From assembly GCA_050741935.1 (NCBI GenBank), contig JBOGFE010000644.1:1-39644 (forward strand): a DNA stretch of 39,644 bases, written 5' to 3'. A model generated the notes under the pieces. It was not told the DNA's origin. It worked only from the letters and a program-made list of their open reading frames with translations, and did not search any database. The first letter of the stretch is position 1. The number at the start of each line of letters is the position of its first letter. The position numbers and the translations under genes were made by a program. This DNA comes from Acidimicrobiia bacterium. Its GTDB lineage: Bacteria > Actinomycetota > Acidimicrobiia > IMCC26256 > BP-133. Positions 13,000 through 27,924 of this stretch are shown one piece after another.

Positions 13000-13017
13000 T
13001 GAGTGGTGCACCACTCA
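13000..13017. promoter_or_regulatory. Perfect 18-bp palindrome TGAGTGGTGCACCACTCA followed by TGAC (candidate operator, copy 1)
   Basis: Read directly from the sequence. It lies in the divergent CHAP/cluster intergenic region, 65 nt upstream of small ORF 13082. A near-identical element (TGAGTGGTCGGCCACTCA+TGAC) is at 18497-18518. Confidence 0.45.
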
Positions 13018-13081
13018 TGACAGCAGGGGCGTCGTACCTCAGGATCACCCCGTCTACAGGGGAAGGGAGGTGTCGACACCA

Positions 13082-13162
13082 ATGAGTTACACCGCGAAAT
13101 GGAAGGCCGCGCGCCAGGCGCGCCAGCAGCGCGCCGCACTGGCGCACACCGCCAAGTGGTGA
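13082..13162 (+). CDS. Unannotated 26-aa small ORF MSYTAKWKAARQARQQRAALAHTAKW (candidate peptide gene heading module 1)
   Basis: ATG at 13082 is preceded by GGAAGGGAGGTG (13061-13072) and the TGA stop is at 13160-13162. It is too short for the ORF track. Whether it is really coding cannot be proven from sequence alone. Confidence 0.35.
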   Translation: MSYTAKWKAARQARQQRAALAHTAKW

Positions 13163-13182
13163 TCCCACACCGATGACCGTTC

Positions 13183-13217
13183 GAGAGGGTCCGGGTGGGG
13201 TCCACTCGGGCCCTCTC
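13183..13217 (+). promoter_or_regulatory. Strong stem-loop between the small ORF and the first large gene (possible attenuator, stabiliser or processing site)
   Basis: GAGAGGGTCC (13183-13192) pairs with GGGCCCTCTC (13208-13217): 10 bp with one G-U pair. The loop can form a further GTGG/CCAC helix. Confidence 0.35.
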
Positions 13218-25196: not shown

Positions 25197-25208
25197 AAGG
25201 AGGACGCT

Positions 25209-25550
25209 ATGAACATCATGGTCATCCAGTACTCCAACGACCCCAAGCGGGCCAGCGAGTTCTACCAGTCTCTGGGATTCGAGTTCTCGGCCGACCGCAG
25301 CGACGCCCGGTGGTGGGAACACCAGGGCGGCGGGGGCACCATCGCGGTGCACCTGGCCGAGGGCGAATACGCTGCCGGGGGACACGACCTGTGGTTCGTG
25401 TCTCCGGAACCGCTCGCGACGGTCGCCGCTCGCCTCGAGAGCAAGGGATTCTCCAGCCAGGTGAAGGACGAGCCGTGGGGAAAGGCCCTGTGGACCACCG
25501 ACCCGGACGGCACCACGGTGCAGGTGACGAGCTCGGCTCCCGGCGGGTGA
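25209..25550 (+). CDS. VOC / glyoxalase / bleomycin-resistance-family small protein
   Basis: The 113-aa product carries ASEFYQSLGFEF...HDLWFVSPEPLATVAARLESKGF...DEPWGKALWTTDPDGTTVQV. The SD GAAGGAGGA lies at 25197-25205. Confidence 0.85.
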   Translation: MNIMVIQYSNDPKRASEFYQSLGFEFSADRSDARWWEHQGGGGTIAVHLAEGEYAAGGHDLWFVSPEPLATVAARLESKGFSSQVKDEPWGKALWTTDPDGTTVQVTSSAPGG

Positions 25551-26656
25551 CCGAACCCTCACGGGTGCTCACCCGGCGGGAGCTCAATCGCACCCTCCTC
25601 GCCCGCCAGGGCCTGCGGGAAAGGGTCGGGCGACCGGCACGGGAGATGATCGAGCATCTGGCCGGCATGAACGGGCAGTTCGCCACCGGACCGTACATCG
25701 GGTTGTGGAACCGGCTGATGGGCTTCGAGCGCGACGAGCTCACCCAGCTGCTCCGGGGCCGGCACGTCGTCCGGGCCACCTTGATGCGCGGCACCATCCA
25801 CCTCGTCACCGACACGGACTACCTGCTCTTCGCCCCTGCCCTCCGGCCGGTGCTGGAGCGAGGGTTCCGGGGCTACTTCGCCCAGGAGGGCCGGACCCTC
25901 GACATCGACGCCCTGGTGAGCAGGTCCCAGAAGCTGCTGGATCAGGCACCGTTGTCGCGACCCGAGATGGAGCGCGCCCTGGCCGACCTCGAGCCGGACG
26001 CCCGGGAGGGCAGCCGGGCCTTCGCCGTGCGGGCCCACCTGCCCCTCGTGCAGGTGCCCCCGGCCGGCGAATGGGAATCGAGGGGAGAGGTGCGCTACAC
26101 GCTGGCCGAGGCCTGGATCGGCCGGCCGTTGGGCGAGCCGGAAGCCGGCCAGGAGCACATCGTGCACAGGTACCTGACGGCCTTCGGCCCCGCGTCCCTC
26201 GCCGACATCGGGGCCTGGTCCGGCCTGTCCCGGCTGCGGGCGGTGCTCGACCGGCTCGCGCCACAGCTGCGGACCTTCACCGACGAGGCGGGCGGCACCC
26301 TCTACGACGTCGCCGACGGGACCCTCGGCGACGCCGACGACGCCGCCCCGGCGCGCCTCCTCCCCGACTACGACAACGTCCTGTTCGCCCACAAGGACCG
26401 GACCCGGGTCCTGCCCGAGGAGTACCGCGGGACGGTCGTCCCCACCGGCCGGCGCATGCCCGGCACCTTCCTCGTCGACGGGTTCGTGGCCGGGACCTGG
26501 CGCATCGAGTGCACCGGGACGCTCGCCGCTCTCCACCTGGCGCCCTTCGGGCGCCTCCGGCGCCCGGCCCGGGACGAGTTGGTCCAGGAGGCCGAGCGGC
26601 TCGTGCGCTTCGCCGAACCCGACGCCGCCCGCCACGAGGTCCGTCTCCCGTCGTGA
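25547..26656 (+). CDS. Winged-helix AlkZ/YcaQ-like (DUF1006/HTH_42) protein, possible DNA glycosylase
   Basis: LTRRELNRTLLARQGLRERV...MIEHLAGMNGQ...GLWNRLMGFERDELTQLLRGRHVVRATLMRGTIHLV is typical of the family. The start is GTG 25547 (GTGA overlap with the VOC stop) or GTG 25565. Confidence 0.75.
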   Translation: MTEPSRVLTRRELNRTLLARQGLRERVGRPAREMIEHLAGMNGQFATGPYIGLWNRLMGFERDELTQLLRGRHVVRATLMRGTIHLVTDTDYLLFAPALRPVLERGFRGYFAQEGRTLDIDALVSRSQKLLDQAPLSRPEMERALADLEPDAREGSRAFAVRAHLPLVQVPPAGEWESRGEVRYTLAEAWIGRPLGEPEAGQEHIVHRYLTAFGPASLADIGAWSGLSRLRAVLDRLAPQLRTFTDEAGGTLYDVADGTLGDADDAAPARLLPDYDNVLFAHKDRTRVLPEEYRGTVVPTGRRMPGTFLVDGFVAGTWRIECTGTLAALHLAPFGRLRRPARDELVQEAERLVRFAEPDAARHEVRLPS

Positions 26657-27924
26657 CCACCCCCGAACGGCGCCTTCTGGGGGGGCTGACGCGGATCCGG
26701 GAATTCGCCGGCCCTGACTTCCGGCGCTATCTGGCGGCGACGACGGTGTCGAGTACCGGCTCCGCCCTCACCGGCGTCGCCCTGCCCCTGGTCGTCTTCG
26801 GCGAGACGCATTCGGCCCTGCTCGCTTCCCTGGTCGTCGCCGTGCAGGTCGGCCCGTTCCTGGCCTTCGGCCTCGTGGCCGGGGCGGTGGCCGACCGCGC
26901 CAGGCGCCGCCGGCTGATGATCGCCTGCGACCTCGTCTCCGGCCTGGCTCTCGTCGGCCTGGTGATCTGTGCCGCGTTGGGGGTCTCGATCGTGCCGGCC
27001 GCCATGACCGCCGCCGTGGTCGTCCAGGTCGCCTTCGTCTTCTTCGGGGCGGCCGACTTCGCCGCCATACCGGCGCTGGTGGGCCGGAACCGCGTTGTCG
27101 AGGCCCAGAGCGCGCTGAGTTCGATCACCATCATGGTCGGCCTCGTCGTGCCCGCCGTCGCCGCCGCCCTCTACGGCACCATCGGTCCGCTCCCGCTCTT
27201 CGCCATCGACGCGGCCACGTTCTTCTTCTCCGCCGTCATGCTGACCCGCGTCCGGTCCCAGTTCCTCAGCACCTCCGGCGACGGGCGGACACCCCGGCGG
27301 GGGCTGCCCGCCGAGATCGCCGATGGCCTGCGCTACCTGTGGCGGGAGAAGGTGGTGCGGGCCCTGACCCTCATCGGCGCCTGCAACGCCATCGGCGGCG
27401 GCGTCATCGACGCCATGCTCGTCGTCTTCGCCAGCCGGGCGCTCGGGATCGTGCCTGAGGACCCCCGCATCAGCATGTTCTTCCTGGCCGGGAGCATCGG
27501 ATCACTGAGCGGCGCGCTGGCGCTCCCTCACCTGCGCCGGCGGCTCCCCGTCCTGACCGTGACCCGGGTCCTCCTCGTCTGCTCGGGTGGCGCGGTGGCA
27601 CTCATCGCCGCCGCTCCCGTAGCCGCCGTGGCCATCGTCGCCTTTGCCGTGTGGCGGGCAACCTACGGCATGACCATCACCAACGGCATCACCTTGCGGA
27701 TGCAGGTGCTCCCCGACGACTACCAGTCGCGGGTGGGAAGCGCCGCCCGGCTCATCGCCCTCAGTGGCTCGCCCGTCGGCGCCCTCCTGGCCGGGGTCCT
27801 GGCCGGCGGCACCAGCATCCGGGTGGTGATCGCCCTGGCCGCCGTTCCCATCCTGGCCGGCATCGCCCTCGCCTCCCATTTCCACCAGTCACTGGGCTCG
27901 GTGCCCGAAGCGGCGCCCTCCTGA
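26653..27924 (+). CDS. MFS transporter (MFS_3/EntS-like), exporter candidate 2
   Basis: FRRYLAATTVSSTGSALTGVALPLVVF...AVADRARRRRLMI plus about 12 hydrophobic segments. There is a GTGA overlap with the upstream gene. The longer ORF-track start (25705) is shadow sequence. Confidence 0.85.
   Translation: MTTPERRLLGGLTRIREFAGPDFRRYLAATTVSSTGSALTGVALPLVVFGETHSALLASLVVAVQVGPFLAFGLVAGAVADRARRRRLMIACDLVSGLALVGLVICAALGVSIVPAAMTAAVVVQVAFVFFGAADFAAIPALVGRNRVVEAQSALSSITIMVGLVVPAVAAALYGTIGPLPLFAIDAATFFFSAVMLTRVRSQFLSTSGDGRTPRRGLPAEIADGLRYLWREKVVRALTLIGACNAIGGGVIDAMLVVFASRALGIVPEDPRISMFFLAGSIGSLSGALALPHLRRRLPVLTVTRVLLVCSGGAVALIAAAPVAAVAIVAFAVWRATYGMTITNGITLRMQVLPDDYQSRVGSAARLIALSGSPVGALLAGVLAGGTSIRVVIALAAVPILAGIALASHFHQSLGSVPEAAPS

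Follow-up and report, generated by a model that had tools for sequence, protein, structure and literature searches.

In a 39,644-nucleotide stretch of DNA from an Acidimicrobiia bacterium (contig JBOGFE010000644.1 of assembly GCA_050741935.1, positions 1 to 39,644 of the forward strand; 'the window' below), a string of same-strand genes lies between 13.0 and 27.9 kb around a gene for a YcaO protein. We consider this region, with a probability of roughly 60%, to be a genuine composite biosynthetic gene cluster (BGC) in which two independently conserved ribosomal-peptide modules stand under one shared operator, module 2 being a rare and undescribed family of YcaO-dependent peptides that are ribosomally synthesized and then modified post-translationally (RiPPs). 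What is new is this undescribed YcaO RiPP family together with a new FGE-fold peptide module. Module 1 (13.0–18.5 kb) is an independent unit, much commoner than module 2 (18.5–27.9 kb), and each has also been met without sign of the other on retrieved sequence. An initial annotation, made from the sequence alone, had recognized two units, each opening with the same palindrome, ribosome-binding sequence and small open reading frame (ORF), and this holds: the palindrome occurs twice in the window and GGGAGGTG stands at Shine-Dalgarno distance both times. The two units are, however, not halves of one invention but independently conserved modules of very different abundance. Gene order and both small ORFs are kept in other genomes, so the adjacency is not accidental and, as had been supposed, the region lies outside the canonical RiPP layouts, nothing in it matching a characterized cluster. 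Neither module was identified by the literature, an NCBIfam model or a solved structure; full-text searches for the precursor motif HTHHPLTH, or for YcaO combined with AlkZ, M24 or RiPP plus formylglycine, returned nothing relevant, and NCBIfam has no model for pepA, pepB, G5, G7 or G12 (gene designations are given in the lists below; L numbers denote the retrieved loci used for comparison).

Gene organization

Because the window has about 72% GC, genes were called from third-position GC and start/stop junctions. This gave 15 genes on the + strand at 13082–27924, 13 of them large and two small, where the initial annotation had rightly placed all genes on one strand but counted fourteen. All ten junctions that it had listed as translationally coupled were recovered, with [A/G]TGA overlaps at 14621, 16282, 17547, 20401, 22070, 25547 and 26653 and longer overlaps of 11 nt at 19535, 7 nt at 21339 and 8 nt at 24090. 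Its domain calls were likewise reproduced with Pfam and NCBIfam (FGE-sulfatase, SBP_bac_5, two MFS_3, Methyltransf_11, a weak LLM, JmjC_2, SagB, YcaO, M24, Glyoxalase and AlkZ-like), and its cluster boundaries are correct, since the flanks hold unrelated housekeeping genes (a molybdopterin oxidoreductase, beta-propeller proteins, a CHAP-domain protein, an M3 peptidase and a GGDEF-EAL protein).

Module 2: a rare YcaO cluster with a conserved precursor

The features of module 2 are as follows.

18497..18514, no strand assigned: palindrome 2, operator-like, TGAGTGGTCGGCCACTCA (then TGAC), 83 nt 5' of the pepB ATG
18597..18761, + strand: pepB, 54-amino-acid (aa) precursor MENGTEARTADEIGELLDEIGMEFALHTHHPLTHLELGDAAPDAIKQRAACSAW; Shine-Dalgarno sequence at 18584–18591
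18850..19545, + strand: G5, class I methyltransferase-fold protein without the GxGxG S-adenosylmethionine (SAM) loop, marker of module 2; no Pfam or NCBIfam match
19535..20404, + strand: G6, short luciferase-like (LLM) oxidoreductase; TIGR03571, 9e-13
20401..21345, + strand: G7, JmjC_2 oxygenase; PF08007, 5e-21; also in L009 and L001
21339..22073, + strand: G8, SagB-type FMN dehydrogenase (azoline oxidase-like); TIGR03605, 2e-11
22070..24097, + strand: G9, fused E1-like/RRE and YcaO protein; PF02624, 6e-43; TIGR03604, 5e-53
24090..25196, + strand: G10, M24 Xaa-Pro peptidase, coupled to the YcaO gene; PF00557, 6e-43
25209..25550, + strand: G11, small VOC protein (glyoxalase/bleomycin-resistance fold); PF00903, 1e-6; 58% homologue in L004
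25547..26656, + strand: G12, AlkZ-like (HTH_42) DNA glycosylase homologue; PF06224, 2e-77; aligned to AlkZ 5uuj
26653..27924, + strand: G13, MFS_3 exporter of module 2; homologues 60% identical in L004 and 37% in L009

The small ORF of module 2 had been thought to end at about 18708, with G5 starting at 18709; instead pepB extends to 18761, and since it does, and since a start at 18850 agrees with the G5 homologues, we place the G5 start there. Ten independent pepB homologues share ELLDEiGxxF and H-x-H-H-P-[LM]-[TS]-[HY], the family layout being a variable N-terminus, a conserved (E/I)LLDE(I/M)G-x-x-F, the invariant H-x-H-H-P-[L/M]-[T/S]-[H/Y] and a tail, highly variable in length, with one Cys that usually lies 3–4 residues after an Arg. 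As the sources span 50–75% GC, this conservation acts at the protein level. A single tail Cys is present in all nine precursors linked to G5 and G6 (the window and eight relatives); the precursor of Kribbella (L001), whose cluster has neither gene, stops eight residues past HHPL (...LHQHHPLSYLEGEAV) and has no Cys. No RNA hairpin was found 3' of pepB (z = +1.75). In L009 and L010, the only relatives with an HFCD flavoprotein (PF02441), the precursors end in a C-terminal Cys (...LVDC* and ...MVVC*; L009 5584–6189 and 7109–7267, L010 513–764 and 8451–9023), which by analogy with AviCys-type RiPPs suggests oxidative decarboxylation of that residue. L009 also carries an M1 peptidase.

Relatives were compared by gene neighbourhoods, BLASTP and tblastn, and nine independent ones have readable neighbours (L004, L006/L011, L007/L008, L009, L010, L012, L094, L098 and L001). 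A pepB-type precursor is found in 9/9, and the order small ORF, G5, G6 in every one except Kribbella (8/9), G6 always following G5. YcaO and M24 genes occur in every relative whose contig reaches that far (that of L094 ends after G6), the M24 gene being directly downstream of YcaO in eight relatives, and a SagB-like gene in all but L098 and the truncated L094, although in L006, L007, L011 and L012 this gene is without a match in the pre-computed Pfam table. The Kribbella cluster comprises precursor, YcaO, M24, SagB-like and JmjC genes.

All searches indicate that the module is rare. A search of about 5.8 billion proteins gave G9 no relative closer than 52% identity and no more than about a dozen that are full-length. 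Of 185,579 species-representative genomes, a single one, that of Kribbella sp. DT2, encodes a full-length relative (36%); these genomes yielded just three distant YcaO relatives, L002 and L003 sharing the YcaO domain alone. The most module-2-specific gene is G5, with 15 representatives at E <= 1e-10 in an exhaustive hidden Markov model scan of 1.84 billion cluster representatives. No module 2 was found in the plasmid collection.

Some relatives have further genes beside the cluster. In those of lower GC (L006 11975–13936; L011 9732–11494; L007 13007–15885; L012 2039–3400) there are DNA methyltransferase genes (N6_N4_Mtase, DNA_methylase), a spore-photoproduct-lyase-family gene and transposases; the DNA methyltransferase and photoproduct-lyase-type genes could be mobile-element cargo or additional DNA-level self-protection. 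Glycosyltransferase genes adjoin module 2 in L007/L008/L012 (GT9) and Kribbella (GT2; L007 2966–5428; L012 807–1853; L001 5344–9170), and may glycosylate the peptide or be unrelated cell-wall genes.

Module 2 enzymes

The AlphaFold (AF2) model of G9 (pLDDT 82, pTM 0.86) aligns over its full length (646–688 columns, Foldseek probability 1.0) to LynD, MusD and TruD, while stand-alone YcaOs cover the C-terminal ~410 columns only. The E1-like domain proposed initially as fused to YcaO is thus borne out structurally, the sequence-only match to TIGR03882 being weak (E 0.006). Within the clade S-x-G-E-A-V-E-R-Y, E-L-V-E-R-D and the CPTC of the N-terminal domain are conserved, and the ATP/Mg motifs are intact and align to those of M. 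kandleri YcaO and TruD. Within the G8 family RRSSR and RPYPTSGG-x-DEL are retained, and an invariant Tyr follows an Arg or Lys; this [R/K]-Y aligns with the K-Y of CyaGox (Lys being Arg in 6/7 members), and the best solved matches of the G8 profile, a SagB-type dehydrogenase, CyaGox and BmdC (3e-9 to 2e-7), are all azoline oxidases. G10 has the five metal ligands D, D, H, E and E intact when compared with Pyrococcus prolidase 1pv9 (9e-37), and its closest solved relatives are all Xaa-Pro-specific. G7 matches the protein histidyl hydroxylases NO66 (3e-22) and MINA53 (3e-20) far better than the bacterial arginine hydroxylase YcfD (about 1e-3), with the HxD...H triad aligned. A check of catalytic residues therefore found the motifs of the YcaO, SagB-like, M24 and JmjC proteins all present.

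The closest solved proteins to G6 are F420-dependent LLMs, as weak matches. For G5, which had been described as a degenerate SAM-methyltransferase fold, the AlphaFold (AF2) model (pLDDT 86) matches class I SAM methyltransferases with a Foldseek probability of 1.0 (TM about 0.6), so that the fold is supported and the SAM loop is indeed missing. The acidic residue of motif II (D66) is invariant, and the family is characterized by the motifs NPFGLQ, TLDWG and SSIIYRxY.

Module 1: a small peptide gene before a HEAT and FGE-fold enzyme

Module 1 consists of the following.

13000..13017, no strand assigned: palindrome 1, operator-like, TGAGTGGTGCACCACTCA (then TGAC), 65 nt 5' of the pepA ATG
13082..13162, + strand: pepA, 26-aa basic peptide MSYTAKWKAARQARQQRAALAHTAKW ending Lys-Trp; Shine-Dalgarno sequence GGGAGGTG at 13065–13072
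13173..14624, + strand: G1, N-terminal HEAT-like and FGE-sulfatase-fold domains; PF03781, 4e-44
14621..16285, + strand: G2, SBP_bac_5 solute/peptide-binding homologue; PF00496, 1e-28 ('signal-less' is the label of the initial annotation, no signal-peptide predictor having been applied)
16282..17550, + strand: G3, MFS_3 exporter of module 1; homologues 71% identical in L095, 57% in L094 and 41% in L013
17547..18485, + strand: G4, class I SAM methyltransferase with intact motifs; Methyltransf_11, 8e-27; homologues 65% identical in L095 and 38% in L013

Homologues of pepA (24–26 aa, ending K-W) lie 5' of the FGE-fold gene in L094, L095, L096, L016 and L097, and an ORF of this type, unannotated, is present wherever 5' sequence of that gene exists. 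The family, window included, comprises MSYTAKWKAARQARQQRAALAHTAKW, MSYAQQWAAARTARTYRPARPDTVKW, MSYTVKWQQARKARNVRPVLSHVSKW, MSYSKQWQKAREARKVRPVLSVVSKW, MTYGSQWEKAASARSLKKRLPDADKW and MWAKKWQKARKTRRPAMLCPPTKW, and in an alignment of five (the plasmid copy left out) M1, W7, A10, R11, R14, R17, K25 and W26 are invariant. The whole family appears to have been overlooked by gene callers. On the Streptomyces xanthophaeus plasmid NZ_CP116356.1 (L097) the homologue MTYGSQWEKAASARSLKKRLPDADKW at 8772–8852 is directly 5' of an annotated SUMF1/EgtB/PvdO-family gene and is missing from the PLSDB gene table, which can omit genes.

The description of G1 as a HEAT plus FGE-sulfatase (SUMF1/EgtB-type) protein stands for the FGE fold and, through the PF13646 HEAT_2 match at the N-terminus of G1 homologues, for the HEAT part, but G1 is neither a true FGE nor an EgtB. 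The best solved relative of its FGE-fold domain is CalU17 of the calicheamicin cluster (4e-19); alignment to CalU17 and FGE entries puts GGTWTSLPEQVSVAFRG where FGE has the catalytic, copper-binding C-x4-C, and the absence of this Cys pair rules out FGE function. An EgtB/OvoA function is ruled out as well, since the TIGR03440 score is 78.9 bits where 360 would be required, with only the C-terminal FGE-like part matching, and no DinB iron-binding domain was matched. G1 thus shares the fold with the FGE/EgtB/OvoA/CalU17 family, CalU17 being nearest among solved structures, but differs in lacking the Cys pair and DinB domain, in its N-terminal HEAT region and in being preceded by a gene for a 26-aa K-W peptide. 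G4, in agreement with its description as an intact SAM methyltransferase, has whole motifs.

Dozens of full-length G1 homologues (50–76% identity) occur in Micromonospora, Amycolatopsis, Lentzea, Kitasatospora and Streptomyces, and a G2 homologue follows the FGE-fold gene in L014 (39–40%) and L096 (61%) and, after two inserted genes, in L095 (74%). The loci that show module 1 outside a YcaO setting, or on short contigs, are:

L095, soil contig: G1–G4 at 65–74% in unchanged order, with PhyH and another FGE paralogue besides; retrieved sequence without YcaO
L096, Amycolatopsis halotolerans: genes for FGE-fold, SBP5 and MFS_3 proteins; retrieved sequence without YcaO
L097, S. xanthophaeus plasmid: genes for FGE-fold, MFS and methyltransferase proteins; retrieved sequence without YcaO
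L014/L016, organism of ~48–50% GC: FGE-fold and SBP5 genes, then a PhyH-resembling ORF (not scanned); contigs too short to judge YcaO

In L095 (1385–8234) an ATP-grasp, a second methyltransferase and an MFS gene lie upstream, and behind the first FGE-fold gene come two insertions, the PhyH gene and the second, shorter paralogue; L013, too, has PhyH alongside its FGE-fold gene. Between pepA and the FGE-fold gene there is a GC-rich hairpin of 10–14 bp in L095 (4843–4915, z = −3.3) and in L096 (9924–10000, z = −2.1), with no counterpart in the window.

Relationship between the modules

The palindrome TGAGTGG-N4-CCACTCA has exactly two copies in the 39.6-kb window against 0.08 expected by chance. 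The same palindrome lies 5' of the L095 copy of pepA but is absent from the 95 other loci; the operator is therefore native to module 1 and has been duplicated before module 2 in this organism. The octamer GGGAGGTG sits 9 and 5 nt before the pepA and pepB ATGs, respectively, but as it is not rare (seven matches in the window against 4.8 expected) only its position counts.

Two loci place the modules together. The order in L094 is pepA, FGE-fold gene, MFS_3, pepB, G5 and G6, followed by the contig end. In L013 (Tengunoibacter tsumagoiensis, Chloroflexota; 3906–12234) PhyH, FGE-fold, MFS_3 and methyltransferase genes are divergent from genes for a truncated YcaO, which has no N-terminal E1-like domain (alignment starts at G9 residue 192), and a short M24 protein (264 aa), with an AlkZ-like gene and IS66 nearby. 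No pepA- or pepB-like ORF, G5, G6 or SagB gene was found in L013 and, with its YcaO truncated and IS66 close by, we treat it as a rearranged or decaying cluster.

The simplest reading is that of two autonomous peptide systems, repeatedly co-located and here co-regulated, which may act together. It is also conceivable, though in our judgement unlikely, that there is one integrated pathway in which the module 1 enzymes (FGE-fold, SBP5 and methyltransferase) tailor the pepB product and pepA is accessory or regulatory, for example a translational arrest or attenuator peptide for G1–G4. The operator common to both units, the direct adjacency of the modules in L094 and the module 1 genes beside YcaO-M24 in L013 all speak for integration, as do the shortness, fixed length and invariant K-W-stop of pepA, which recall arrest peptides (TnaC is an arrest peptide), and the strong hairpins 3' of pepA in L095 and L096. 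However, module 1 with pepA stands without YcaO in L095, L096 and L097, module 2 stands without module 1 on the contigs retrieved for L004, L007 and L009, and the markers of module 2 are far rarer than the G1 family. As the pepA–G1 gap in the window is only 10 nt, a terminator-type attenuator is not conserved, and the strong Shine-Dalgarno sequence and the invariant residues along pepA would be just as expected of a substrate or ligand. A single pathway in which pepA is accessory is less likely than two autonomous systems.

Predicted maturation pathways

For module 2 we propose that the RRE of G9 binds the ELLDEIGxxF leader element and that ATP-dependent cyclodehydration would take place at Thr33 (HHPL-T-H), the sole universally conserved Ser/Thr, and probably also at the tail Cys; the SagB-type flavoprotein G8 would then oxidize the azoline(s) to azole(s). 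The NO66-like JmjC protein G7 is predicted to hydroxylate one invariant histidine, His29 or His30, and G10 to cleave the invariant His30-Pro31 bond in leader removal. G5 (methyltransferase fold) and G6 (LLM-like) may act on the Cys-bearing tail, a role suggested by their presence with all nine tail-bearing precursors and absence from the one tail-less cluster. The MFS_3 pump would export the product, while the VOC and AlkZ-like proteins would protect the producer. In module 1, pepA would be processed by the HEAT and FGE-fold protein G1, with the cytoplasmic SBP5 protein G2 as a likely peptide-binding partner, G4 methylating and G3 exporting.

A number of points weigh against this interpretation of module 2 and its control. 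All its chemical steps are inferred from homology and conservation. The Cys/Ser/Thr-rich core is lacking, as a single Ser/Thr is conserved throughout and the tail has no more than one Cys; the C-terminus of G9 is P-[L/M]-P-H-A (H-S in L013) in 8/8 clade members examined, proline-rich but not PxPxP; and both core enzymes fall below their NCBIfam cut-offs (G9, TIGR03604 of the SagD family, 180.3 bits against a trusted cut-off of 219.25; G8, TIGR03605, 43.8 bits against 78.4). The initial description of 'unambiguous azole-forming machinery' was for these reasons too strong. The glycine-rich motif I of G5 is absent (consensus ALVxPxAxxP), and the link of G5/G6 to the Cys tail has a single negative case, Kribbella. 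Since M24 enzymes are normally exopeptidases, cleavage by G10 at His-Pro would need earlier trimming or an altered specificity. Finally, no regulator gene or helix-turn-helix protein to bind the palindrome was found in the cluster or either flank.

Two other roles for the YcaO protein have to be weighed against azole formation. The product could carry an amidine instead of, or besides, an azole, if G10 exposes Pro31 and the YcaO protein closes a six-membered N-terminal amidine over Pro31-Leu32-Thr/Ser33, the flavoprotein being structural or cryptic. Such a route would be favoured by the position of the invariant P-[LM]-[TS], immediately behind the His-Pro bond, and by the intact Xaa-Pro peptidase encoded beside YcaO in every relative whose contig reaches that far, directly downstream of it in eight. 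M24 and Xaa-Pro enzymes are nowhere mentioned in a 2023 survey of RiPP leader proteases, which argues that the M24 enzyme probably has a special role. In the streptamidine pathway, where the core is H-L-S, the N-terminal amine is released by a hydrolase of the cluster, the core is acted on by an E1-like protein and a YcaO with a proline-rich C-terminus, and a flavin dehydrogenase is essential with no net oxidation in the product; the klebsazolicin counterpart of the core is S-Q-S (PMC8442711). The SagB-like enzyme, however, keeps its azoline-oxidase motifs, and proline offers only a secondary amine. We know of no N-terminal amidine on proline, and regard the route as improbable. Far less probable still is that the YcaO protein is mainly an ATP-dependent peptide-bond cleaver like MusD, trimming the variable C-terminal follower without forming heterocycles. 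MusD (7u58), which removes C-terminal residues via an acyl phosphate (PMC10885120), is among the top full-length structural matches and the precursor tails are very variable in length, but LynD and TruD match equally well, MusD itself needs azole-containing substrates, and the SagB-type azoline oxidase accompanies YcaO in all nine relatives but L098 and the truncated L094.

VOC and AlkZ-like genes and the target of the product

The VOC and AlkZ-like pair noted initially contains both domains but is no stray pair, as it belongs to module 2 and recurs with it. Five independent clusters have an AlkZ-like gene next to module 2 (the window, L004 at 62%, L012 at 53%, L007 at 51% and L013 at 41%), at varying positions and from sources of 46–75% GC, and the identities of these genes (41–62%) follow those of YcaO (38–52%). 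Glyoxalase genes are also found in L006, L007, L009, L010, L011 and L012, so that VOC genes occur in nearly all relatives; the closest solved relatives of G11 are small VOC proteins and, more weakly, mitomycin-binding protein. AlkZ-like proteins combined with VOC proteins are a signature used in resistance-guided mining for genotoxins. At the Q-A-Q site of AlkZ the window and L004 both read N-G-Q, L007 has N-A-Q and only L013 the complete Q-A-Q; among these four aligned copies, which are of the form x-phi-Q, the second Gln is invariant and the YQL Asp is found in none. The motif classes described are AZL, (Q/H)-phi-Q; YQL (housekeeping YcaQ-like), Q-phi-D; and AZL2, H-phi-(S/T)(D/E). AZL proteins are enriched in BGCs for DNA-alkylating agents, often beside VOC resistance proteins, and YQL proteins are never in BGCs (PMC9040887). 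The cluster resembles the AZL genotoxin BGCs (azinomycin B, hedamycin and trioxacarcin) in having an HTH_42 protein beside a VOC protein and efflux pumps and in keeping the second catalytic Gln, with the full Q-A-Q in L013; it differs in that the characterized cases are all polyketide or non-ribosomal peptide synthetase alkylators, none being a RiPP, and in the Asn at the first catalytic position in three of the five cluster-linked copies.

If the pair protects the producer, the product would act on DNA. The recurrence of the pair is an association with genotoxin-type self-protection and not proof of it, and hints that the product may damage DNA. Taken furthest, and tentatively, module 2 might make the first ribosomally made peptide genotoxin: His-rich, azole- and hydroxy-histidine-bearing, with a bleomycin-like metal-binding, DNA-directed logic, self-protection by AlkZ-like, VOC and efflux proteins and maturation by the M24 Xaa-Pro peptidase, which would be an enzyme type not previously used in RiPP pathways; module 1 would at the same time be a second new and widespread natural-product class, a 26-aa Lys-Trp-terminated peptide with an FGE-fold enzyme. 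To our knowledge no RiPP is a DNA-damaging product. It is also possible, although we would not call it probable, that the VOC and AlkZ-like genes travel along as genes of general stress response or repair, or have another role, and that the product has a conventional RiPP target or binds metal via its His block. What counts against a genotoxin would fit this explanation: the predicted chemistry offers no obvious DNA alkylator, the azole and hydroxy-histidine not being electrophilic; the first AlkZ catalytic Gln/His is Asn in G12 as in L004; and the likeness of G11 to drug-binding proteins is weak (E about 3e-4). AlkZ-like genes are, moreover, multi-copy in actinomycetes (PMC9040887), the His-rich invariant block would fit metal binding, and streptamidine-type clusters are linked to metal transport. 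Mere passengers are, on the other hand, hard to reconcile with AlkZ-like genes in five independent clusters of differing GC, at varied positions and with identities that follow YcaO, with a motif of the BGC-associated AZL type, whose genes in BGCs typically neighbour VOC genes (PMC9040887), or with VOC genes in nearly every relative.

Comparison with known RiPP classes

With LynD/TruD-type heterocyclases and their oxidases module 2 shares the fused E1-like/RRE and YcaO architecture (three domains, Foldseek probability 1.0, about 680 columns), intact ATP/Mg motifs, a SagB-type FMN oxidase with an aligned K/R-Y and, in ELLDEIG, an acidic helical motif of the leader that is similar to the recognition sequences of cyanobactins. 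It differs in that identity is only 15–18%, the precursor has one conserved Ser/Thr and one Cys where those systems have a Cys/Ser/Thr-rich core, the C-terminus is P[LM]PHA and not PxPxP, scores lie under the NCBIfam TOMM cut-offs, and an M24 Xaa-Pro peptidase, G5/G6 and JmjC, VOC and AlkZ-like proteins are added without PatA/PatG proteases. A cyanobactin is ruled out, as the cluster contains no S8 or DUF domain (PatA/PatG-type) genes.

The streptamidine (ami) and klebsazolicin systems resemble it in combining a precursor, E1-like function, YcaO, a cluster hydrolase and a flavin dehydrogenase (PMC8442711), and in a short conserved core containing His, Leu and Ser, with Ser/Thr as residue 3 after the cleavage site. 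In the streptamidine system, however, AmiB is a protein apart from the stand-alone YcaO, the hydrolase belongs to a family other than M24, the core reads HLSATH and the cluster is linked to Fec-type iron transporters; neither system has G5/G6, JmjC, VOC or AlkZ, and the precursor families are unrelated. Thioamitides (thioviridamide, thiostreptamide S4) are likewise YcaO RiPPs with His beta-hydroxylation by a 2-oxoglutarate/Fe oxygenase, methyltransferases and a C-terminal Cys on which an HFCD flavoprotein acts (PMC8153245), and L009 and L010 share the HFCD gene and C-terminal-Cys precursors, but the His hydroxylase is PhyH-type (PF05721) there and JmjC_2 here, the precursor is another, phosphotransferase/lyase genes are missing and the window has no HFCD. 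A thioamitide is ruled out, TfuA being absent from 13.0–27.9 kb (Pfam, NCBIfam) and from the gene tables of the relatives.

Flanking sequence and database representation

The upstream flank (window 4997–8199) holds a DUF5122 beta-propeller gene (2.7e-67) and a Vgb_lyase-family beta-propeller gene (2e-94) with long opposite-strand shadow ORFs. Several ORFs at 27942–30300 and 10370–11760 have no Pfam match, and GC drops to 0.66 at 29–30 kb. No Rfam families or tRNAs were found in the window; a promoter/terminator scan, uninformative in high-GC DNA, gave no promoters and one chance-level terminator, and a generic repeat finder returned GC-rich noise only. Partial NCBI proteins labelled 'MAG: Acidimicrobiia bacterium' are 100% identical to G1 (P0085) and 99% to G5 (P0078). 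These lie on contigs of ~1.75 kb, so that the window is a much longer assembly from the same organism or one nearly identical to it, and public databases hold this cluster as fragments only.

Implications

Module 2, if our reading is true, is a defined and very rare YcaO cluster family. Its new precursor motif, its two accessory proteins without a family model and the Xaa-Pro metallopeptidase that is obligatory in it would all be handles for new YcaO chemistry, and a minimal module 2 is available in culture with Kribbella sp. DT2. AlkZ-like and VOC genes beside a RiPP cluster would, on the same condition, place a DNA-damage signature in a class without known members of that kind. Module 1 brings an unannotated family of 26-aa peptide genes before a HEAT and FGE-fold enzyme and, being present in many cultured actinomycetes, including on a Streptomyces plasmid and in Amycolatopsis halotolerans, is experimentally accessible at once.

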